DNA from: a virus
Taxonomy: Duplodnaviria; Heunggongvirae; Uroviricota; Caudoviricetes
Length of the DNA stretch: 35,583 nucleotides
Reading direction: 5' to 3' (one strand)
Virus record (IMG/VR): IMGVR_UViG_2711768048_000005
Location: 1-35,583 of that record
Shown: positions 9,500 to 35,583 of the stretch, one piece after another
How the letters are laid out: the number at the start of each line of letters is the position of its first letter
Numbering within the stretch: the stretch's first letter is position 1
Program-made: the position numbers and the translations under genes
The notes under the pieces: generated by a model
The model's input: the letters and a program-made list of their open reading frames with translations, nothing else
What the model was told of the DNA's origin: nothing
The model's database searches: none

Positions 9500-10074
9500 T
9501 ATTCACCCCCGAATCTATAAACTTGTTCATAGTCAATGTCTGAAACAGGAATGGTCATCCAGATACCATCTTCTTCAACGAGGCCATAACCGGAATAATG
9601 AGGAACTACAGAATAATAATTACGGTTTCCTAATTTGTGGGCTGTGACCAGTAAATCGCCGTCCTGTAAATCATCAGTGACTAATTTGAAATGTTTCTTA
9701 ATTGGTTGAAGGATATTTGAATACCCGCTTAATTCTTTGCAGATTTTCAAGCCTTCTTCTTTAGTTGAATATTTTTTATAAAGAGAATTATATAGGTCAG
9801 TACCAGCGAGAATATCGATGATCTTACATGCAATGAGATTGCAATCATTCTCGCCTTGAACGAACTCCTGACCTATTAAAGAATTGATGTAATCGGTGAT
9901 AAGCCTAGTTTTTAGCATGTTGAATACCTCCATGCTGTTATTTACTAGGCTTAGGGTGAAGGGATTATTTCTTCGATGAATGCCACTTGCTTTCTGAGTT
10001 CCACTTCCCGGCACGGGAGAAGAATAGATCGTTCTCGTTTCCAACATAGGATCGGTGGATACCATCGGAGGCAT
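9499..10074 (-). CDS. tail-tip protein with NlpC/P60-like domain (lambda K-like)
   Basis: Cys-containing motif ENDCNLIACKII with downstream His, resembling NlpC/P60 papain-like hydrolases. Its stop overlaps the J-like start (TAATG). Real start probably downstream of the track start. Confidence 0.55.
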   Translation of the reverse strand: MPPMVSTDPMLETRTIYSSPVPGSGTQKASGIHRRNNPFTLSLVNNSMEVFNMLKTRLITDYINSLIGQEFVQGENDCNLIACKIIDILAGTDLYNSLYKKYSTKEEGLKICKELSGYSNILQPIKKHFKLVTDDLQDGDLLVTAHKLGNRNYYSVVPHYSGYGLVEEDGIWMTIPVSDIDYEQVYRFGGE

Positions 10075-10672
10075 GACTACGAGCGTTTTTATCTAGAACT
10101 TCCCAGATACTATTAAGCTGAAATTCTGATTCGTTTTTACACTCATCATCTTCATGTTCGATGTTAATCCCGATGGAATCGACTACCCCACGGAAAACAG
10201 GGTAAGTAGTTTCAACCTTGCCCGTGTTGGGGTTAAGGAAAACCATCTCGATTTTCACATCAGATTTATCGAATTGCTTGTTTCGAATCAGGGTAATGTA
10301 TTCTTCGCGAACGTTAGAAACAGTTACGTTGATCCCGTTGTTGTTGATCTCCTTCTCTTCGGTATTCGATGAGATTTGAAGAAAATCACCCGTTGCGAGA
10401 TACGTAAATCCGTTATAGTCCAAATCGAAATACCCATCTGTAAGCCGTAGAACGTCCCCTGACGCTGTTATCACTTCGATAATGTGAAACATCGATCCAG
10501 TAGAGAAAAGTTGCGGTAGCGTCAATCTGGTAACGTTCTGCCCTGTCTGGTCGTTGTATACCTCGATGAAGTCCAGATTTGTGCATAGTTTGCTGAATGA
10601 TTCCTGAATAGTTGCCATTATACATTCTCCACTAATTCGAATTTCATCTTGCCAATCTGGGCGATCTTCCAA
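9965..10672 (-). CDS. minor tail protein (lambda L-like by position)
   Basis: Positional call within the M-L-K-J-like block. Track start overlaps the upstream gene, so the true start is probably an internal ATG (MATIQES...). Confidence 0.45.
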   Translation of the reverse strand: MEDRPDWQDEIRISGECIMATIQESFSKLCTNLDFIEVYNDQTGQNVTRLTLPQLFSTGSMFHIIEVITASGDVLRLTDGYFDLDYNGFTYLATGDFLQISSNTEEKEINNNGINVTVSNVREEYITLIRNKQFDKSDVKIEMVFLNPNTGKVETTYPVFRGVVDSIGINIEHEDDECKNESEFQLNSIWEVLDKNARSHASDGIHRSYVGNENDLFFSRAGKWNSESKWHSSKK

Positions 10673-15608: not shown

Positions 15609-18600
15609 TTATTTAGTTGCTTTCAGCTCGGCAATCTCTTTATGTAATGCTTCGATCTGCGCTTTATATTTGGCGTCCATTTCCTGCATTGCTTTAATAA
15701 TCAGAGCATTGACAGCAGAGTTAGAAATAGTCTTGATTGCTTCTGGATGTTCTGGATCTTCTGTGGATTGAATACCTACTGCTTCCGGCAATACTTTTTC
15801 CAGATCCTGAGCAATAATACCTACTTCGCGTTTAATCACCGTGTCATCGGAAAGAGATTTAACTTTATCGTAGGTGTAGACTTTCAGTGAGTTTACTTTC
15901 TCTAATGCACCGTCCTTTAATTCTTCCTTGTTAATTTTCAAACGGGAGTCAGAGCGAATGTAAACATCGTTAAAGCTACCGTTACGACCTGCGGTAAAGT
16001 CACCAGAGGCGTTAAAGTCAAAGTTAGTATCATGAACATGGAGACGAACAAGAGCGTTACCGATAGTACCGCTAGGAACATGTACACCCATTGCTGCAAT
16101 GTGATATTGACCCCAATGAGTAGCTTTCCAGATGTTATGTGCTGAATCTTTTGATTGGGGGCAATCAACTTGCAAACCGGAAGCACGGTCACGCCAACTA
16201 GACCAGCTACCACCAGAAACGTTACCACGAATCAAACCTTTATCAGATCCACCGACGCTACCAGATTCAAGATGAATCATCTTATCCGCAAGTTTCCACA
16301 CCTGGGCTTGTTTCTGACCACGGAAGCGAATAACACCAGCATCATCGGAATACATCAAACCTAGTTCTAATCCAGTTGGATCTCTAAACCAGATATGCTT
16401 ATTACCAGTGCGACGAAATTCAATATCAGCACCGTTCAAAAGAATATTGCCGCCAGTGTGAATTGCTTGAGGCTTAACAGTACCGTTGATGGCAAACTCA
16501 ATTGCCGTAGTACCCGGACCGCCCGGACGTTGGGTATACCAATGCCAACCACTTTCATCTACACACTCGAAAACCTGTTTACGGGAATCACTATTACCCC
16601 AAGCACGAATATTGAAACTAGAAGTAGCTGTACCCTTACCCCACGTTAATTTTCCTTCGGTAGTTAAATCCCCTCGGAAATGAGCAAGCAAACCACCAGA
16701 TCCGTTGCGTTCAGTGGTAAAGTGAGTTCCGCTAGTGTCCTGGAATTGCAAAACGTTATATCGATCGGCATTACTATTCCCCCAATGGTTAATCGTGAAA
16801 GAATCCATCGACTGATTCCCACCCGCAGAGAAAGTAAGCAATCCTTTTTCTAAGAATACGTTGTTGCTAAAACGGGCAGCACGGCTATCTCTTTCAAGAA
16901 TTAATGCACCTTCGTTACCATCACCGCCTAAAGTAACTTTACCGTTAGTCAAATCGTAAATGAACGGTCTGTTTCCATTCCACCCGCCCAATTTATCATT
17001 TTCGGCAGTAGAAAGAAGATAAACTTTAGTGCCGTCATTACGCCAGAATGCACCATAATTACCGTAGATCATGCGGTAAGCGTCGCTATTCATTGAGATG
17101 AATTGAGCGTTAGTATAAACTCGCTTCATGTTACCTGTCTGAAATTCGATCTGCCCGTCGATGTGGTGACGAATAGAACTACCACCCACATCGCTATACC
17201 ATTCAAAAACGTTAGTATCAGCATTGGCATAACCGATCCAACCTTGACGCGTAATATCTCCAGTCCGGTTATCTTGAAACGCAATGTGGTTAGATTGACC
17301 AGCAGGTCGGCGTAGTGTAATGGCATTAGATCCGCCATTTAACAGCATACGACCAGAAATAATATTACCTTTATGAGTTCCGGCAATTGAGCTACTAGAT
17401 TCAATAGTCATAATTTCCTGAGCATCAGTGCTACCAGTAGCCAGACGATAACTGGAACCTTGAACCGTCTCATGCCAGATCATTTCATTATAGTTACTAC
17501 GGAATTTACGAATATATTTCCGTCCAGTACCTCTATCATTGCTTAGATGAACAATGTCATAGCTGTTTTGTGTATTGTCGTCAAAACTCAACACACCACG
17601 TTTATTTTCTGTATTGAATAGAGTAATGATGCGCCCACCAATAACACCAACAGAAGGTTTAATTAACGTGGCTTCCGGTGTATCGTGAACAGTCAGATTA
17701 ACATAAACACTTTTACCAAATTCAACAATAACGTTATCAGTGTAACGCTGATATTTCACATAAATGTCATAGTTATCACCGGATGTATTGACGGCAAATA
17801 CATCAAAATCTTTGACGGTATTTCGACGATATGCAACTACGTTAAGTCCTTTAGGTCTATCGTTACCACTACGGAGAAGAATTTCTACTACATCAACTTG
17901 GTCATATGCCGTAACGTTGTAACCATTACCACCATGAATACGGAAAAACACACTACGCCCGTTTTGTGGAATTGTTGCGGTTGCCAATTTGAAATATGCA
18001 GATACGTTTTCGCTAGAATTGGGAACAGACATAACGACGTTTTTAACAAACATCTTATCAACTTCGGCTTTGGTGTATGCACCAATCTCGCCAGGAGTCG
18101 GCTTATCACCTTCGTGATACATCTTATAGCTAAAGTTCTTCTGTCCTTCTCTATCAAAACCATAGGTTTCAACACGAGATCCACCAGACGCATAACGGAA
18201 AGTAAATCCGCGACCGTGCGCTTTACCGGAAGAGTGAGGAACGTTAAGAGTTAGATCCATGAGTCCATCTTGACCATTGGTACGGAAAGCACCAAAGTAG
18301 TTAAGATCTCTCGCTGTCTGGTCTTCCAAATAGTTAGCTGTCTTGCTTAACAGATACCCACCATGCTTAGTATTGGTATTCTTCTTGATGTAAGCAGCAT
18401 CGGCACTACCTTCAATAGAATCAATTCGCTGGTTAGTTGCGGCAATTGCGGCATCGGCACTGGCCTTGTTATTTGCAACAGTTCTTTCAATGGCTGTCTT
18501 ATTCGCAGAGACCGTACTAGTAAGATTGGTGATCTTCGTGTCCGCATCTTTCTTATTATCCGCTACCGTCTTTTCTATTGCTGATTTATTTGCTGAGACA

Positions 18601-19139
18601 GTATTCGTTAAGTTAGTAACGTTGGTATTAGTCTGATCAACTCGTGCATTAATATCTGTCTTGTTCTTGTTAATTGTTGCGTTGATAGTATCGCGGGTTG
18701 AAGTAATAGTCTGATTCAGTTCAGTCTTAGCAGCCGCCAGAGCGTTAGCCGCTTCGGTTTTATTGTTACCTACTGTGGTAGTCAAAGCATCAATTCGTTT
18801 GTTGGCTGCGGTGTCGCCAGCAGTGATTGAAGCATTGAGAGCATCACGGGTAGAAGTGATAGTCTGATTCAGTTCAGCTTTAGCACTAGCCAGATTATCA
18901 GCAGCTTCTTTCTTATTTGCTGCAATAACCTTATCTGTGTTGGCCTTGTTGGTGTCTACTTTCGTATTCAGTTCAGCGTGTTTTTCTGGAGAAACACTAA
19001 TTTGAACTACGTTATTATTTTTGTCTTTGGTGTAAATCACATGATCCGCCAGTTGTAAGGCGATCTCACCCTGTGATAATTGTTCCGGCGTTGGTTTTTT
19101 ACCAGCCGTTTGTGTGCGTTTAAATTGGATCGACTGCAT
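15609..19139 (-). CDS. long tail fibre (L-shaped-fibre-like) with C-terminal intramolecular chaperone-like domain
   Basis: 1176 aa. N-terminal repeated heptad-like segments (NQTITSTRD..., TNLTSTVSANKTAIERTVANNK). The C-terminal ~130 aa (SDSRLKINKEELKDGALEKVNSLKVYTYDK...) resemble the self-cleaving chaperone domain of endosialidase-type fibres. Confidence 0.75.
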   Translation of the reverse strand: MQSIQFKRTQTAGKKPTPEQLSQGEIALQLADHVIYTKDKNNNVVQISVSPEKHAELNTKVDTNKANTDKVIAANKKEAADNLASAKAELNQTITSTRDALNASITAGDTAANKRIDALTTTVGNNKTEAANALAAAKTELNQTITSTRDTINATINKNKTDINARVDQTNTNVTNLTNTVSANKSAIEKTVADNKKDADTKITNLTSTVSANKTAIERTVANNKASADAAIAATNQRIDSIEGSADAAYIKKNTNTKHGGYLLSKTANYLEDQTARDLNYFGAFRTNGQDGLMDLTLNVPHSSGKAHGRGFTFRYASGGSRVETYGFDREGQKNFSYKMYHEGDKPTPGEIGAYTKAEVDKMFVKNVVMSVPNSSENVSAYFKLATATIPQNGRSVFFRIHGGNGYNVTAYDQVDVVEILLRSGNDRPKGLNVVAYRRNTVKDFDVFAVNTSGDNYDIYVKYQRYTDNVIVEFGKSVYVNLTVHDTPEATLIKPSVGVIGGRIITLFNTENKRGVLSFDDNTQNSYDIVHLSNDRGTGRKYIRKFRSNYNEMIWHETVQGSSYRLATGSTDAQEIMTIESSSSIAGTHKGNIISGRMLLNGGSNAITLRRPAGQSNHIAFQDNRTGDITRQGWIGYANADTNVFEWYSDVGGSSIRHHIDGQIEFQTGNMKRVYTNAQFISMNSDAYRMIYGNYGAFWRNDGTKVYLLSTAENDKLGGWNGNRPFIYDLTNGKVTLGGDGNEGALILERDSRAARFSNNVFLEKGLLTFSAGGNQSMDSFTINHWGNSNADRYNVLQFQDTSGTHFTTERNGSGGLLAHFRGDLTTEGKLTWGKGTATSSFNIRAWGNSDSRKQVFECVDESGWHWYTQRPGGPGTTAIEFAINGTVKPQAIHTGGNILLNGADIEFRRTGNKHIWFRDPTGLELGLMYSDDAGVIRFRGQKQAQVWKLADKMIHLESGSVGGSDKGLIRGNVSGGSWSSWRDRASGLQVDCPQSKDSAHNIWKATHWGQYHIAAMGVHVPSGTIGNALVRLHVHDTNFDFNASGDFTAGRNGSFNDVYIRSDSRLKINKEELKDGALEKVNSLKVYTYDKVKSLSDDTVIKREVGIIAQDLEKVLPEAVGIQSTEDPEHPEAIKTISNSAVNALIIKAMQEMDAKYKAQIEALHKEIAELKATK

Positions 19140-20061: not shown

Positions 20062-20532
20062 TTAAAAACGCGCTAGATAAGAAAATTTAAGGCTAAGTGT
20101 CCCAACGATACCCCCATCACTAGAATCATCGTCATAATCGGTATTAGAGGCTACTGGAGTGATATCTGAAATAGAGAAGCCCAAATCTTTAAATCGTGGG
20201 TTATCCGGCTGAATCTGGATTATCTGGCAAATACCCTCATGAATTTTCGTTTCATGAATCTGAGAATATAACTGCATTTCGATAACGCATTCAGCTTGGA
20301 TTGCATTACCGCCACGAACACGCGTATAAGTTTCATTCATTCCAGTAATCCAACAAACCACATCATCACTAAAGCCTTGCTGAGTTTGTTCTACGTTTAA
20401 AGCCAGACCTAAATCTTGTTCGATAATATCTTGCAAGGCGCGTTTGATTTTCAGTCTAGGCATGTTATTAACGGTAGCGAGCATGTGTACCCCCTGCCAG
20501 AGTAATAAAGCAATCAGTGGTATTATCACCAT
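20062..20532 (-). CDS. head-tail connector / tail completion protein (positional call)
   Basis: Small ORF between capsid and tail genes. Track start overlaps the upstream gene, so the true start is probably internal. Confidence 0.35.
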   Translation of the reverse strand: MVIIPLIALLLWQGVHMLATVNNMPRLKIKRALQDIIEQDLGLALNVEQTQQGFSDDVVCWITGMNETYTRVRGGNAIQAECVIEMQLYSQIHETKIHEGICQIIQIQPDNPRFKDLGFSISDITPVASNTDYDDDSSDGGIVGTLSLKFSYLARF

Positions 20533-20758
20533 TGCGCTTAACGTATTGAACTTTGAAACGCTGATTTTCTACAGTGACAACATCACCCTGATTTAAGTCT
20601 CCCTCACGACAGAATAGAAATTCTGTTTCTGTCATTACCCCTTGTTCGTCGGTAGTAGTAATTTCATGATAAGCACGAATTGATTTACCACCTTCCACCG
20701 AAAATACAGGAGCACTCTTAAACATTCTTGATAATTGTGATTCTGATAATTTGAACAT
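20468..20758 (-). CDS. head completion / head-tail adaptor protein (positional call)
   Basis: 96-aa ORF immediately downstream of the capsid gene terminator. Confidence 0.35.
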   Translation of the reverse strand: MFKLSESQLSRMFKSAPVFSVEGGKSIRAYHEITTTDEQGVMTETEFLFCREGDLNQGDVVTVENQRFKVQYVKRNGDNTTDCFITLAGGTHARYR

Positions 20759-29318: not shown

Positions 29319-29786
29319 TTACAGCATATCTAAGCCTTCGTCGTAACCGTAGAAGCCATTCTGAGAAGAGAAACAGATTGGTGCGTAGTCGTCGTCATCT
29401 TCGTCTTGTTCATCTTCTTCTGGGGCTTCCTGAGCGGTTTCTTTGCCGTAGTTAAACATTGCTTCATCCAGTTCATAGACAGTAACGAAGCTACCCAGAT
29501 CAATGTCACCGGAACGAACTTGAAACGGCAGATCATCACGAACAATAATTGCTGGTAGATTCTGGTACTTTAAGCGTTCTTCATCGGTGAAGACGTTAAC
29601 AACAATGGTCGGCTTCTTATTACGGCAAAACGCATACCATGCACTAGAGAAATGAGATTCATCAGAGTTGAAAAGAATGTTGTAACCACGTTCACGGAAC
29701 ATCTTCATTAACTTGTCATTGTGGAAGCTATCAGCATCAAAACCTAACAGGATGAAAGGAGTAGTGGTAGTCATTTTATGGTTCAT
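29319..29786 (-). CDS. hypothetical protein with acidic C-terminal tail (155 aa)
   Basis: Track ORF with RBS AGAGGA; C-terminus EEDEQDEDDDDY. No motif recognised. Confidence 0.45.
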   Translation of the reverse strand: MNHKMTTTTPFILLGFDADSFHNDKLMKMFRERGYNILFNSDESHFSSAWYAFCRNKKPTIVVNVFTDEERLKYQNLPAIIVRDDLPFQVRSGDIDLGSFVTVYELDEAMFNYGKETAQEAPEEDEQDEDDDDYAPICFSSQNGFYGYDEGLDML

Positions 29787-30361
29787 AGTGGAAATCCTCT
29801 AAAAGAAAGTGAATCAATCTAATATTATTTATAAAGAGAAAATTCTTGTTATTATGAAAAGAGTGATTGTATTCAGTCGGGCAAAGCCCTCCTTCATGAT
29901 TTGATTAAATCATCATCAAAACGAAGAAGTATCTTTAGAATATAAGAATCTTTCTTTTGGAGAAATAATAATAATCAGGAAGCAATTTAGCAACCGAAGG
30001 TTGCAATCCCGAAGGGATACCAATACCTTTCTAGAAAGTGATTGTTACTCACTTCGTTCGTTTACTAGAATCAGTTAGTAACTAGTATTAAATCCCTTTC
30101 TAAGAAAATCCTTTCAAAAGCGAGTGAACGCCGTAGGCGTGAACGTGAGCGAAGCGAACTATCCAATCCCTTTCGAATCCTGCTTGCAGGTCTTAGAAGG
30201 TGTTGATGGGCGCTTCGCGCACGGCTACGCCGTATTCTTTTTGCGAGATCTTTCTTGAACGTAGTGAGAGAAAACGAGCAAAAAGGAGAACGTTAGTTCG
30301 AATTTTATATTCTATGGTCTGTGGGGTGAAATGTCTTTCAAGATCATACAATTATGAGATT

Positions 30362-30486
30362 GAAGTGTAGGGTTAGTGTAGGTGTGTAGGTTTCATAGTG
30401 TAGGTTTGAGGGTGTTATAGTGTAGGTTTACTGGCTAGTGTAGTGTAGGCCAATCCCTTTAAAGCGTAGGTTTGTAGTGTAGGTTT
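30362..30486. repeat. iteron-like array: about 8-9 copies of (TA)GTGTAGG(TTT) at irregular 8-23 nt spacing
   Basis: GTGTAGG (one copy GCGTAGG) read at about 30365, 30376, 30384, 30398, 30420, 30442, 30465 and 30475, with a partial GTGTAG at 30437. Lies inside a 1.25-kb stretch with no ORF of 60 aa or more in any frame. Confidence 0.7.
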
Positions 30487-30680
30487 TTCATCAAAAATTT
30501 TGATAGAAAATCCTTGTGTATTATTTAACCGGAAAATCACCAAAAATCGCTGTAAATGCATGATTTAAAAAGAATTATCAAAAGGTCGCCGTGCTATAAT
30601 AGGTTATAAAGGTTGATAATCGTTATCCGCCATTTTCACATAAAAATTTTGATAGTCATTTCTCGCTTAGGTCAAGTGTA

Positions 30681-30709
30681 TTGACAACTGTCAAGGATTA
30701 TTTTATACT
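30681..30709 (+). promoter_or_regulatory. near-consensus sigma70 promoter (TTGACA-17-TATACT) overlapping a palindrome TTGACA-AC-TGTCAA
   Basis: Hexamers and spacing read directly. The same TAGGTCAAGT 10-mer (30668-30677) occurs at 29221-29230. Confidence 0.6.
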
Positions 30710-30844
30710 TTTTCTCTTTGATAGGGGTTGAAATTTTCGAAACAATCCCCATATTGATGATAAGCAAGATTTTTTCGTGTATAAATACATGCATGAAATG
30801 ATTGTTCACTTCTGAAAATCCCCTGATTCACTGTTAACACATAC

Positions 30845-30872
30845 GGCACTGGTTAAACATACAGTGCCTTTT
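30845..30872 (+). terminator. intrinsic terminator/attenuator in the leader downstream of the 30681 promoter
   Basis: ggcactg-gttaaacata-cagtgcc followed by tttt. Confidence 0.45.
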
Positions 30873-31036
30873 CGATTGAATAATGTACGAATTGATTAAT
30901 TATTAATCTTCTCTTTAGCAATTCGTGCTCCCACTGATCAGATATACAGTGGTTTTACAGGGTTTTCTGAAATGACTTTTATAAATAGAAGTATCGAGGG
31001 CGAAAAGCTCTTTTTATTGTCCTTATTAATCCACAT

Positions 31037-31231
31037 TTGAGGAATCTACTTATGGCTAGACCTGTTAAGTTTACTCGTGAAATGATTGTTGATATTGCTA
31101 AACGCTTTTATGGCGATACTGAACGAGGCGGCGAGAATTTCTTTAAGAAGGAAGGAATTGATAGAAGCGGATTCTATAAGCTAATGAAGAAATACGAAAT
31201 TCAGATAAAGATTAACGTTCAAGTTTGTTAA
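31037..31231 (+). CDS. small putative DNA-binding protein, paralogue B (likely start ATG 31052, 59 aa)
   Basis: MARPVKFTREMIVDIAKRFYG...GIDRSGFYKLMKKYEIQIKINVQV aligns with the product of 27756-27980. RBS GAGGA 8 nt upstream. Confidence 0.5.
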   Translation: MRNLLMARPVKFTREMIVDIAKRFYGDTERGGENFFKKEGIDRSGFYKLMKKYEIQIKINVQVC

Positions 31232-31347
31232 TCCACTTTCACTGAGAATTATATGATGGCTTTAAAAATAAAAAGCCTCCCTTGTTGCAGCAAAGGAGGC
31301 TTGAAATGAACAATTAAAACTAACACAGCATTCAGGAGTATTTATAA

Positions 31348-32349
31348 ATGAAAAATTCTAAGCGCATCACCTTCAACCTGTTTATTAAATCCAACGGCAA
31401 ACTGAACATTACCGTCATGGAAGGTAAAGCAAGCAAACAAGACAAATCCTTTGAAGTAGTATCCGGTAAGACTCTGACCGAAATGCGTCAGAATGCTGGC
31501 ATCAAAGACGGTGCTGAATGGCAGATCACTAACCGTTTCGACAAACGTCACGTTAAACCTACACTGGTAGAAGGTGAATCCGTTTATTGCTTCGCTCGTG
31601 CTGTTAAAGCCGATGAAACTTACTATCTCGCTGTTGTTAAAACTGCTTCCGGCTTCCGTGCTGTAATGCATCACAAGAGCAAGCGTAACGAATACGGCGT
31701 AGAGACCCAGGAAGTCGCAAAACGCTTCCGTACTGTTGCTACTGAATCCACTGTAAAGGATGTTTCTGGTACTGTTAACACCGCTAAAGGCGGTTCCTTC
31801 TACAACCACGCATTACAGGTTACTTCCTCCTTCTTCTGCAAAAAAGAAGCACAGAAAGAAGTTGCTCCGGTAGTAGTTGAAGAAGTTAAAGAAGAAGTTG
31901 CAGTGGTTGAATCTTCCGAAGTTGAAGCACTGAAAGCACGCATTGCTGAACTGGAAGCTGAAAACGCATCTCTGAAAGCTGAACTGGCAGCGCAGGAAAC
32001 CACTTTCGAAGTAGCAGCGGTTGAAGTTGAAGCAGTTGAAGAAAAATCCATTGATGAAGAACTGGAAGAACTCCTTAACTATCGCTGGGGTAACGGTGAA
32101 AAAGTAGAACAGGAAGAACAGAAAGAAGCTGATCCGGTAGTAGTTCCGGTTGAAGAAAAATCCGCACCTGTTACTAACTTTGAATCCCTGCGCAATAACT
32201 TTATGGCTAAATTCAAAACCACTTGGGAAGATACCGAAGAAGAACAAGAAGAGATTGAAGTAAACGAAGACGAGATCCGCGAAGCACAGATGGCACTGCA
32301 TGACGCTATCTACGACACCAACTACAGCGCCTACGCATACGCAGCTTAA
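31348..32349 (+). CDS. hypothetical protein, basic N-terminal domain plus long acidic coiled-coil C-terminal half; strong codon bias
   Basis: 333 aa with RBS AGGAG. Codon choice (cgt, ggt, ctg, tcc, acc, gaa, aaa) looks like highly expressed E. coli genes, unlike its neighbours. C-terminal half is E-rich. Confidence 0.6.
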   Translation: MKNSKRITFNLFIKSNGKLNITVMEGKASKQDKSFEVVSGKTLTEMRQNAGIKDGAEWQITNRFDKRHVKPTLVEGESVYCFARAVKADETYYLAVVKTASGFRAVMHHKSKRNEYGVETQEVAKRFRTVATESTVKDVSGTVNTAKGGSFYNHALQVTSSFFCKKEAQKEVAPVVVEEVKEEVAVVESSEVEALKARIAELEAENASLKAELAAQETTFEVAAVEVEAVEEKSIDEELEELLNYRWGNGEKVEQEEQKEADPVVVPVEEKSAPVTNFESLRNNFMAKFKTTWEDTEEEQEEIEVNEDEIREAQMALHDAIYDTNYSAYAYAA

Positions 32350-32364
32350 TAGAGGGGTGAATCT

Positions 32365-32607
32365 ATGATGAATCAAAACAAAGAATTTCTGGGTAATCTG
32401 ATGTTAGAAATTACCAGAATGAAAGAAAGAATGGTAGCGATGGAATCAGAGATTAAAACTCTTAAAGCTGATAATAAGGCGTTGAGAAAGTCCTTAAAGC
32501 TGATTGATGAGACTAATGCGGTTATGATGGATCATGTATTCCCTGAGTGGCGAAATGAAACTAAACCTACACAACATAAGAAACTTACACTTCGAATTGT
32601 TGCATAA
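32365..32607 (+). CDS. small coiled-coil protein (80 aa)
   Basis: Track ORF 12 nt downstream of the previous stop, with a GAGGGG RBS. Confidence 0.45.
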   Translation: MMNQNKEFLGNLMLEITRMKERMVAMESEIKTLKADNKALRKSLKLIDETNAVMMDHVFPEWRNETKPTQHKKLTLRIVA

Positions 32608-33307: not shown

Positions 33308-33862
33308 TTAAGACACATCAAATTCATCGTCTTCTTCTGGTTCTTGTTCCGGTTCATCCATTAATGGTAATTCTTCTTCCTCGTCTTCTCCCAAATCAGC
33401 ATTTTCGAACAAGTCCCCTACTTCATTTAAACGACGCTCGATGATCTCCCTTAGCTTATTCTTCAATGTTTTCTGATCGGTAGCAGATTCGAGAATTTCT
33501 AAAGCATCGATCGTACAAATCTGCAAGATAGTCTGCTTCACCTTCCCACAATATTCAGCTAGCTCCTGTTCTACATAACCGACCGGAATCAGGAGGTTCA
33601 TCGCTTCCTGGTTCTCTCGTTCGGCTGCATCTGCTAAAGCACGTTCACGGCGTAATTTCTCTACATCGATTTGTTCTTTGATAGAAGTTTGTTTAAGCGG
33701 GTTGATAATATTTTTCAAGACCCATTCTGTTCCTTCTTTGGCTGGCACGCGGCGGGTATTGGTGTTAAATGGCAATCCCCTTTCTATCCATCGCTTAGCG
33801 CCACCATTCAATGAATAGCCGTATAAACGGGAAATTTCTGTAAGGGTTAATTCTTCTTTCAT
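33308..33862 (-). CDS. terminase small subunit candidate (Nu1-like HTH protein)
   Basis: 184 aa. N-terminal HTH-like segment (LTLTEISRLYGYSLNGGAKRWIERGLPF), central EKLRRE motif and acidic C-terminus, matching lambda Nu1 architecture as I recall it. Unusually, it is 6.3 kb from the terminase large subunit. Confidence 0.5.
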   Translation of the reverse strand: MKEELTLTEISRLYGYSLNGGAKRWIERGLPFNTNTRRVPAKEGTEWVLKNIINPLKQTSIKEQIDVEKLRRERALADAAERENQEAMNLLIPVGYVEQELAEYCGKVKQTILQICTIDALEILESATDQKTLKNKLREIIERRLNEVGDLFENADLGEDEEEELPLMDEPEQEPEEDDEFDVS

Positions 33863-34220: not shown

Positions 34221-35000
34221 ATGAAAAACATTATCGCTGCTATCGTGCTTTCTGCTACTGCTTTCGGTGCTGATGCTGCGTCCTTTGATTGCACTAAGGC
34301 TACTACCAAATCAGAGAAGTTTATTTGTGCTAACGAGTCTATCTCCGCGCTGGATTCTAAACTCCATGAGGTATATGTTAAGGCTGTTAAGATTGATCCG
34401 TCGCTTAAACAAGAGCAACGCAACTGGAATAAAACTGTTCGTGATACAATGATCAATATCGGGCAGATTCAGCCACTGGAGGCTGTATACAACGCTCAAA
34501 TCCAAAACTTGATGAATGTATTATCTAAAGAAGAAACCGCGTCAGAGAGCGATTCAGAGACTTCTGCGAAGGTTGAAGAAGAACAACCGAAACAGGAAGA
34601 AGTAAAGAAACTGAATGTTACCGCGATTTACGCATGTACTACAAAATTTACATGGAAAGTTATCGATGGTGAGGAAACAGAAGCTGTAAAAGATAAACTC
34701 TACGGAAACAAAACTTTTGATAATAACGGCGGTAAACTTAAGATCAAAATGGTAGACGATGTTCCGGTATCTTTTGTGTATTCCGACAAGTATGATGTTT
34801 ATAAATCAAGTCTCAAGCCATCTAAAGAGAATCCAAACGCAATGGAAGGTAAATCCAAACAGGATACTATTGGACGTGTTAACACTTATAACATCTGGGT
34901 AAGCAAAAAAGGTGACATGCGTCTTGAAGTAATTGAACCAAAATTTGATTCTGAATATAAACACACTCAATTTGCATGTGACATGGTAGACGCAGAGTAA
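34221..35000 (+). CDS. secreted protein with N-terminal LprI/DUF1311-like (lysozyme-inhibitor-like) domain; moron
   Basis: Signal peptide MKNIIAAIVLSATAFGADA. The following FDCTKATTKSEKFICANESISALDSKLHEVY resembles the Cys-containing LprI-family N-terminal motif. Confidence 0.55.
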   Translation: MKNIIAAIVLSATAFGADAASFDCTKATTKSEKFICANESISALDSKLHEVYVKAVKIDPSLKQEQRNWNKTVRDTMINIGQIQPLEAVYNAQIQNLMNVLSKEETASESDSETSAKVEEEQPKQEEVKKLNVTAIYACTTKFTWKVIDGEETEAVKDKLYGNKTFDNNGGKLKIKMVDDVPVSFVYSDKYDVYKSSLKPSKENPNAMEGKSKQDTIGRVNTYNIWVSKKGDMRLEVIEPKFDSEYKHTQFACDMVDAE

Positions 35001-35232: not shown

Positions 35233-35583
35233 TTATTTTGGGTTGACTACATTCGGGTTGCCAATTCGCCTGGCTAACTCTTGCTGAGTGATTTCTGACT
35301 GTAAAAAAGCATTTAACAGCAATACCTTAGAGGCGACGCTCAAAGGTACTTCAATAAAGTGATCGTGACTATTTAATGGCGAAGGTAAAGGGATAAGCTC
35401 GTTATCTTCAAAATAAAAATCAAATGCGGTCAGTAAAGCATCTTTTGCCGCTTCCATCGCTTCAGCGACAGTTTCGCCCTGGGTCAACGCTTCAGGGATA
35501 TCCACAAAAGAAACCATATAACCGCCTTCCGGCGCGGGTGTAAGAGTGACGGGATAACGCATAATTTCGACTGTCTCTCGCAT
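35233..35583 (-). CDS. hicB: HicB antitoxin, 3'-truncated at the prophage junction (host gene; real start MRYPV at about 35562)
   Basis: Translation MRYPVTLTPAPEGGYMVSFVDIPEALTQGETVAEAMEAAKDALLTAFDFYFEDNELIPLPSPLNSHDHFIEVPLSVASKVLLLNAFLQSEITQQELARRIG matches E. coli HicB as I recall it, then diverges into NPNVVNPK-stop at about codon 101. Confidence 0.75.
   Translation of the reverse strand: MRETVEIMRYPVTLTPAPEGGYMVSFVDIPEALTQGETVAEAMEAAKDALLTAFDFYFEDNELIPLPSPLNSHDHFIEVPLSVASKVLLLNAFLQSEITQQELARRIGNPNVVNPK

Follow-up and report, generated by a model that had tools for sequence, protein, structure and literature searches.

The window analysed here is the whole 35,583-nucleotide stretch of the viral record IMGVR_UViG_2711768048_000005, which amounts approximately to one complete prophage of ~35.3 kb, and the subject of this report is a gene-free gap that is bordered by two divergent operons, the leftward p155-p51-Rha operon and the rightward p60-p333-p80 operon. 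This non-coding control region (29787 to 31051) begins next to the 155-aa gene p155 (29319-29786, minus strand), ends at the ATG at 31052 of a 59-aa gene, p60 (plus strand), and contains an array of short direct repeats (iterons). The protein encoded by the second gene of the rightward operon, p333 (333 aa; 31348 to 32349, plus strand), is the putative specificity protein that binds these repeats and a candidate initiator of replication.

A first-pass annotation, made from the letters alone, had drawn attention to about 1.25 kb free of any open reading frame of 60 aa or more. This was confirmed, the longest frame between p155 and the 59-aa gene being 56 aa, and every element listed in that annotation was found again within a few bases of its proposed place. 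All six open reading frames of 44-56 aa in the gap are broken by stops or frameshifts in close relatives, and in nearly all of the 58 E. coli genomes carrying this prophage family (58 of 5426 complete genomes, ~1%) RefSeq holds no annotation there. All relatives examined, among them one with a large terminase (TerL) only 51% identical, retain a gap of 1.1-1.45 kb. The gap is truly non-coding, and it is the central control region of the prophage. Four of the six copies of CAATCCC in the window fall inside it. The motif CCAATCCCTTT, reported to recur three times, is exact at 30163 and 30450, and the third copy, at 30020, has one mismatch. In two genomes an insertion sequence (IS3, ISKpn26) lies inside the gap (related loci L013, 3367-4529, and L036, 1552-2532); these prophages are probably defective, and in L013 the array and part of p333 are missing.

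The repeat array of the window, designated type A, occupies positions 30365 to 30483 on the plus strand. The suspected GTGTAGG array proved real, with seven exact copies of GTGTAGG(TTT) (30365, 30376, 30384, 30398, 30420, 30443 and 30477) and two near copies, GCGTAGG at 30464 and an overlapping partial copy, GTGTAGT, at 30438, all within 119 bp. Every copy is direct, on the plus strand and G-rich on the top strand. Only three further copies of GTGTAGG occur in the remaining 34 kb, 1.93 being expected in the whole window, and none of 100 shuffles reached ten copies. The copies are helically phased, with repeat starts that fit a period of 11.2 bp best (R 0.83, p 0.012), and such phasing was found in three independent repeat types, with periods of 11.2, 10.7 and 10.5 bp (p 0.012, 0.007 and 0.005). 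At the position of the array, related prophages hold other repeats, namely TTCAGGGGCAAAA, CGGGGAT, GGAATCTTGGGGATT and GTGCAGGG. The type B repeat is TTTCAGGGGCAAAAAT (~9 copies), type C is (A/G)CGGGGAT (15-20 copies) and type D is GGAATCTTGGGGATTT (5 copies). Off-type copies were also observed: a stray D-like copy inside the B array in L005 and L007, three GTGTAGG after the B array in L007, L011 and L012, one D-type copy ahead of the promoter in the type-A locus L006, and three TGTAGGT(A/C)T upstream of the C array. Such strays in the gaps of L005, L006, L007 and L010 could be recombination scars or cross-talk sites.

The type of the repeats is mirrored in p333, in which a variable N-terminal domain (~135-170 aa) precedes a coiled coil, an acidic linker and, at the C-terminus, a conserved tail. 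The N-terminal 135-170 residues fall into four classes, mutually unalignable by BLAST, and the C-terminal half is common to all of them; identity of the N-terminal domain is at least 98.8% inside a type and undetectable across types. Repeat type corresponded to the N-terminal class of p333 in 30 of 30 loci (10 of type A, 16 of type B, 3 of type C and 1 of type D). The proteins p196, p85, Rha, p51/p110, p155, p60 and the TerS-like protein, on the other hand, assort independently of repeat type. As the ~860 bp between array and p333 are type-independent (~90-95% identity across types A, B and D) and the match is complete in all 30 loci, matched pairs of repeat and p333 have been kept together across recombination. 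A gradient was seen in two more distant syntenic relatives, where an N-terminal domain 78% identical to that of p333 accompanies GTGTAGG and one 46% identical accompanies GTGCAGGG. Given the 30 of 30 match, with no other neighbouring gene tracking the repeats, we therefore infer that p333 is the repeat-binding specificity factor. As far as sequence can tell, the array is very probably the binding site of p333. The first-pass annotation had proposed a regulator- or protein-binding array and had named the 333-aa protein among the candidates for electrophoretic mobility shift assays; the covariation of the variable domain with repeat type speaks in favour of both suggestions.

Homology searches with p333 in Pfam, PHROGs, NCBIfam, PADLOC and the PDB sequences, together with a word-based search and an exhaustive phmmer search, returned only its own small family, with 1.84 billion representative proteins covered. 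Foldseek with the p333 model gave no match at E <= 0.001, and weak PUR-alpha matches (E >= 1) were set aside. In types C and D the position of p80 (window 32365-32607) is taken by a protein of 286-333 aa with its own N-terminal domain (L010 5604-6605; L038 5357-6217). The C-terminal end is common to both forms (...RPTLRLVA in the 286-333 aa proteins, ...LTLRIVA in p80), which makes p80 resemble a version of a second modular protein reduced to its tail. Several of these proteins end in residues resembling an ssrA tag (YAYAA, RKAA, LVA), and in one strain the C-terminus of p333, ...YAYAA, has grown to 11 YA dipeptides by a coding tandem-repeat expansion (L008 4601-5656).

The second prominent element of the gap is a cluster of mini-hairpins located 130-370 bp left of the array. 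Seven short GC-rich hairpins lie within 29870-30240 (371 bp), where the rate of the window itself would give 0.42 (Poisson p 3e-7). Six of these hairpins contain a heptamer of the class GCGNAGC/CCGNAGG, so that six of the 27 such heptamers in the 35.6-kb window fall within 261 bp (binomial p 4e-8). Taken alone, GCGAAGC shows no enrichment over the window (6 versus 3.5 expected), and the significance holds only for the class and its clustering. Four heptamers are on the top strand (29994, 30009, 30131 and 30149) and the following two on the bottom strand (30212 and 30224). The same order, top strand and then bottom strand, was found in type B (L005), in L040, in the distant relative L041 (TerL 51% identical, sequence otherwise unrelated) and in an intergenic element of phage RB49. 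The layout of the cluster is thus conserved, its sequence is not, and the cluster is shared with RB49-type phages.

From left to right, the cluster starts in the p155 upstream region with GGGC-AAA-GCCC (29879-29889), which is kept in relatives with a varying stem and loop (GGC-TTC-GCC, GGGC-TAAA-GCCC, GCCCC-GTA-GGGGC). It continues with two adjacent top-strand hairpins, GCAACC-GAA-GGTTGC and ATCCC-GAA-GGGAT (29990-30018), each of which carries CCGAAGG. The first of these stems is wholly swapped in relatives with its place kept (GCCCC-GTA-GGGGC, GCAGC-TTC-GCTGC, GACGCTC-CCTA-GAGCGTC, and CTCC-GTA-GGAG in RB49). Two further top-strand hairpins, ACGCC-GTA-GGCGT (30128-30140) and GC-GAA-GC with the heptamer GCGAAGC, span 30128-30155, and the hairpin CCTG-CTTG-CAGG (30179-30190) forms the dyad centre of the cluster. 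Beyond it lie GCGC-GAA-GCGC and ACGGC-GTA-GCCGT in minus-strand reading (30210-30233). On the plus strand, where the latter reads ACGGC-TAC-GCCGT at 30221-30233, a T-run follows and the hairpins count as terminator-like.

Long-range inverted repeats had been noticed in this part of the gap, and they correspond to GCGAAGC at 30149 (plus strand) and 30212 (minus strand), a few bases away from where they had been placed. The long-range pairing exists, with 21-nt arms that are 81% complementary, and it dominates the minimum-energy RNA fold; it fits the data less well than the local hairpins do. Each local hairpin is perfect, the two halves of the cluster are not exact complements of one another, and in L039 and L040 GCGAAGC is changed to ACGAAGT, by which the local hairpin is preserved and the long helix broken. 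Because of the perfection of the individual stems, the change in L039 and L040 and the switch of the GNA loops to the other strand halfway through the cluster, the local hairpins are favoured on qualitative grounds. The class GCGNAGC/CCGNAGG is found at primase start sites of the phages G4, St-1 and alpha3, CCGAAGG is carried by ssiA of plasmid RSF1010, and the class also occurs in the virion-polymerase promoters of phage N4 (PMC13037366). In RSF1010 oriV, iterons bound by RepC are accompanied by ssiA and ssiB on complementary strands (PMC8567376).

To the right of the array, GC content in 30470-30650 is 25-33%, compared with ~41% in the window, and no unwinding motifs of the 13-mer type are defined there. 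The most AT-rich stretch starts with the palindrome ATCAAAA-A-TTTTGAT (ATCAAAAATTTTGAT, 30490-30504), conserved in types A, B, C and D. The motif AAAATTTTGATAG, predicted to occur twice, is exact at 30494, inside this palindrome, and at 30643, as a half-site copy (30643-30655). Two rightward promoter-like sequences follow. One, read from the sequence as an extended -10 element, is TGcTATAAT (30592-30600, plus strand), conserved among 12 distinct right-hand segments; the other is TTGACA-17-TATACT (30681-30709, plus strand), with 11 of 12 matches, likewise conserved and with the palindrome TTGACAACTGTCAA over its -35 box. The leader before p60 (30845-31020, plus strand) contains three terminator-like hairpins (30845-30872, 30931-30956 and 30996-31012), and pairing of the third is kept in the window through a G-U pair, which is possible on the plus strand only. 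Since these features of the right half are conserved across types, they are probably recognised by type-independent factors, and p60, p85 and p196 may be their binders.

Near the left end of the gap lies a 73-nt motif (29900-29972, plus strand; ends TGATTA...TAATCA), to which a unique intergenic element in phages of the RB49 type (Krischvirus) is 81% identical. No other part of the gap is as well conserved across all 58 E. coli genomes, and the consensus RNA fold of the motif is weak (-2.4 kcal/mol). In RB49 (95191-100263; L003 2417-2829) two tandem copies of the motif stand between p165 and p164. The top-strand hairpins CTCC-GTA-GGAG and TCGC-GAA-GCGA come after the first copy; the hairpin after the second has a GTA loop and lies on the bottom strand. 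The RB49 element is unannotated, forms a single locus and is found in 58 Krischvirus records. The PeSL cassette of RB49 and phi1 consists of a sigma-70 promoter and a GGGG...CCCC stem-loop and occurs in many copies in hyperplastic regions (PMC2839356). Identity of the 73-nt motif with PeSL was rejected, as the motif occupies one or two places per RB49-type genome, after a terminator-like stem, and lacks the promoter and the GGGG/CCCC stem of that cassette. No similarity was detected between p155 and the DprA-like protein of RB49, or between p155 and all phage records. A 1176-aa tail-fibre gene (15679-19100) and the LprI-like gene (~34221-35000) show 77-88% nucleotide identity to RB49-type T4-like phages, with gp37 (tail fibre) and genes next to the holin gene t (LprI-like) as their counterparts; together with the 73-nt motif, this makes three separate segments exchanged with lytic phages.

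The distant relative L041 (5485-6594), listed in 427 blocks of the contig collection, has a gap of 1110 bp with the same polarity switch among its mini-hairpins, and this gap has only three TTTGCGATGCA repeats, two direct and one inverted. Nine GATC sites lie within its 1.1 kb, compared with 1.7 per kb over the whole locus, and this clustering was seen in that relative only, not in the window. A cluster of GATC sites is a feature of origins under Dam/SeqA control.

With regard to the prophage as a whole, E. coli DEC5A (O55:H7) carries a 35.3-kb insertion with 99.4% identity to the window that splits the antitoxin gene hicB; hicB fragments are present on both sides of it, and the right end of the window (35233-35583) is the 5' part of hicB. 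At the left end are two small genes and a large serine recombinase (564 aa, 1488-3182), the integration enzyme, and the minus strand up to 26995 holds lysis, tail and head genes and a large terminase of the gpA type. The early-type block of 6 kb follows, with p196 and p85 (plus strand), the Rha/Ant-like gene, p51 and p155 (minus strand), the gap, p60, p333 and p80 (plus strand), the TerS-like gene (33308-33862, minus strand; phrog_57, E 1e-11), which has its own upstream intergenic region, and the LprI-like gene. Three of these proteins, p60, p85 and p196, are small paralogues that resemble helix-turn-helix proteins. Between p60 and p333 a strong minus-strand terminator-like hairpin with a 12-bp stem and T-run (31273-31302) would halt leftward antisense transcription from the TerS-like operon ahead of the gap.

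One genome, UTME-9 (NZ_CP157110.1), contains two prophages of the family, of type B and type A (2804936-2805377 and 3412435-3413671). The closest isolated phage in the phage collection has a TerL only 44% identical, and no cultured representative of the family is present there. A TerL scan of genome contigs gave no match, a literature search on this hicB-integrated prophage returned nothing relevant, and no known defence-system family was recognised among the open reading frames of the prophage. A 91-nt tRNA-Glu(ttc) called by ARAGORN at 20207-20297 (plus strand) lies inside minus-strand structural frames (20062-20758) and is probably a false positive. In the tail module (9965-10672) a 235-aa minus-strand frame is present, and the same part of the DEC5A copy has a RefSeq gene with a NUMOD3 domain, possibly the remnant of a homing endonuclease.

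None of the early genes of this prophage family can be named, and no open reading frame matched a replication, partition or repressor family in Pfam, PHROGs, NCBIfam or PADLOC; origin and initiator are therefore to be sought among the unassigned parts. Among the three options offered for the gap by the first-pass annotation, an origin is the best supported, a centromere-like site found no support, and a structured RNA came with neither an Rfam match nor covariation above controls. That the core of the gap is the vegetative replication origin, made up of an iteron origin, a new orphan initiator and hairpins of the priming type, is in our judgement an even call. In the mechanism proposed, and to judge by the covariation, the variable N-terminal domain of p333 would bind the eight to nine direct GTGTAGG repeats, which lie on one helical face. 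On the model of lambda O/ori and of plasmid Rep-iteron origins, the complex would open the flanking AT-rich DNA and recruit the replisome of the host, as the phage encodes no helicase, primase or polymerase. The C-GNA-G mini-hairpins, to judge by their sequence class and dyad arrangement, would fold in single-stranded DNA and mark priming sites on both strands, a role modelled on that of ssiA and ssiB in RSF1010 oriV and of hairpin I in the G4 origin. The rest of the gap, with its divergent promoters, operator-like palindromes and terminator-studded leader, would control the p155-Rha and p60-p333-p80 operons. Next after the array come the most AT-rich DNA of the gap and a palindrome, an order that the lambda origin also presents. 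As a whole, the layout resembles lambda in its order of genes and RSF1010 in the elements that it combines.

In a wider proposal, which we regard as doubtful, p333 would found a new class of initiators whose N-terminal domain, exchangeable and mostly of beta strands, reads G-rich repeats. The C-GNA-G dyad cluster would then be a portable priming module by which a phage that lacks any replication enzyme captures host primase on both strands, and the module would have been exchanged with lytic RB49-type phages and would mark a so far unmapped origin in them. If true, ssi-type priming signals would extend from single-stranded DNA phages and IncQ plasmids to temperate and T4-like double-stranded DNA phages; if the mini-hairpin cluster does not prime replication, it would point to an unrecognised function of such hairpins.

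Several observations weigh against an origin. Each type is nearly clonal, so that the 30 loci represent few independent events; moreover, covariation between sequences proves a cognate protein-DNA pair and not replication, and immunity regions are just as typically marked by the swapping of specificity cassettes. No known Rep/O initiator family matches p333, a candidate initiator that resembles nothing known, and AlphaFold2 on full p333 and on its N-terminal domain (4-sequence alignment) gave no usable fold, with a predicted local distance difference test score (pLDDT) of ~45. No DnaA box (TTWTNCACA) was found in the gap, a GATC cluster is absent from the window, and GC skew is uninformative as an origin marker, since it tracks gene orientation. 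A primase of its own is missing from the phage, and RB49 carries the same hairpin element with no iteron array. Finally, the hairpins could equally act in RNA, the fold of the plus-strand RNA being much more stable than those of shuffled sequences (z = -5.6).

The alternative that survives best takes p333 as a transcription regulator, repressor or activator, of the divergent early operons and the repeats as its operator array, by which types A to D would be heteroimmune or hetero-regulated, like lambdoid imm regions. We hold this as a tentative possibility. It would account for specificity cassettes exchanged among otherwise near-identical phages and for an array located between divergent operons and near promoter-like sites; no classical CI/Cro is recognisable in the phage, and UTME-9 holds type-A and type-B prophages together. 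In the right-hand segment of the L007 type, an inverted pair GTGTAG...CTACAC is placed operator-like inside a TTGACA-17-TACACT promoter; this pair is of type A, yet the p333 of L007 is of type B. In the window, however, the array ends ~110 bp upstream of the nearest good -10 box without overlapping any strong promoter, and phased direct repeats in numbers of 8-19 are characteristic of Rep/Par sites and unusual for operators. Furthermore, p60, p85 and p196, together with the type-independent palindromes at 30490 and 30681, are better candidates for a switch.

It is improbable that the hairpin-rich left half of the gap (~29975-30245) acts as RNA, whether as small RNA, leader, bidirectional terminator or stabiliser. 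The plus-strand RNA fold of -93.5 kcal/mol is well beyond that of the minus strand in its z value (-5.6 versus -2.8), a terminator-like hairpin with T-run lies at 30221-30243, and hairpin positions are kept among relatives while their stems are swapped. The repeated AATCCCTTTC would, on this view, serve as an anti-Shine-Dalgarno-like sequence, and AAATCCTTTCAAAAG resembles the complement of the p155 ribosome-binding region. Against this, Rfam gave no match at gathering score over the whole window, and for the gap searched at an E-value threshold the best E was 1.2, far short of the family cut-offs. The covariation check across related prophages, which had been suggested beforehand, yielded nothing above controls: in an A-family alignment of little variation, the long helix and the local hairpins both stayed within shuffle controls, and the RNAalifold covariation term was +1.48, which is no support. 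No conserved promoter was found upstream, the T-runs are shifted by 11-13 nt in type B, and the strand switch of the GNA loops fits DNA hairpins on both strands, not one transcript.

A packaging function, in which the array would be a cosB/pac-like site and p333 the true small terminase, is very improbable. In its order of domains (DNA-binding N-terminus, coiled coil, C-terminal tail) p333 does resemble small terminases, the large terminase is of the gpA (cos) type, and packaging specificity types exist among lambdoid phages. However, a separate TerS-like gene is present at 33308-33862, p333 belongs to an early-type divergent operon 4.3 kb from TerL and on the opposite strand, and an array of 8-19 phased direct repeats does not resemble the known cosB sites. 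Lastly, a centromere-like partition site bound by p333 can hardly be credited, for although phased short direct repeats and a coiled-coil protein resemble parC or tubC sites, the prophage encodes no partition NTPase (no ParA-, ParM- or TubZ-like gene), the element integrates through its serine recombinase, all 61 places in the 58 E. coli genomes are chromosomal, and the plasmid collection gave no match to the prophage.

When set beside known systems, the gap and p333 share with heteroimmune lambdoid immunity regions a matched cassette of DNA site and protein domain that is swapped among similar phages; they differ in the long phased direct-repeat arrays away from the main promoters and in p333, which is no helix-turn-helix repressor as far as visible. 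With the lambda-type origin and its O protein, and with the iteron plasmids pSC101, P1, F and R6K, they have in common short helically phased repeats beside AT-rich DNA and a palindrome, and a cognate protein gene close by, in an early rightward operon and behind a small gene of the helix-turn-helix kind. A specificity domain at the N-terminus and the existence of related phages with different pairs of repeat and protein specificity are shared as well. On the other hand, p333 has no detectable similarity to O, to RepA/RepE/Pi or to any Pfam or PHROG family, no DnaA boxes and no recognisable P-like helicase loader are present here, and, in contrast with 19-bp inverted repeats inside the gene, the repeats here are direct, 7-16 bp long and outside the gene.

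The oriV of RSF1010 (IncQ) likewise combines an iteron block with hairpin-forming priming signals on complementary strands in inverted arrangement, and the ssiA heptamer CCGAAGG occurs twice in the gap, at 29994 and 30009. In this case, six or seven short candidate priming hairpins stand in place of two 40-nt signals, and the phage is without RepA helicase or RepB' primase, so that DnaB and DnaG of the host would have to act. With the origins of G4, St-1 and alpha3 and with the N4 virion-RNA-polymerase promoters the gap shares C-GNA-G hairpins (GCGAAGC, CCGAAGG, CCGTAGG) with stems of 4-6 bp and loops of 3 nt, and the published mini-hairpin elements of these phages act in single-stranded DNA (PMC13037366). 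Those elements are single sites in single-stranded DNA phages or promoters of a virion RNA polymerase, whereas the cluster described here is dyad-symmetric and belongs to a double-stranded DNA temperate phage without virion RNA polymerase. The RB49 element, between RB49p165 and the DprA-like p164, shares the 73-nt motif and the GTA- and GAA-loop mini-hairpins, with the hairpin of its second copy on the other strand, and differs in that neither a repeat array nor a p333 homologue adjoins it.

Taken together, these comparisons indicate that the region is iteron-origin-like and outside any known Rep/O family, none having been found by the homology searches. The four or more natural specificity variants of a cognate protein-site pair offer a direct handle on phage replication or switching, and the types of p333 and array constitute a ready-made set of orthogonal DNA-binding modules. 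In relation to the known systems, what is new here is a modular site-specific protein, an orphan that occurs in at least four natural specificities, joined to a conserved dyad cluster of mini-hairpins in a widespread and unstudied prophage family.

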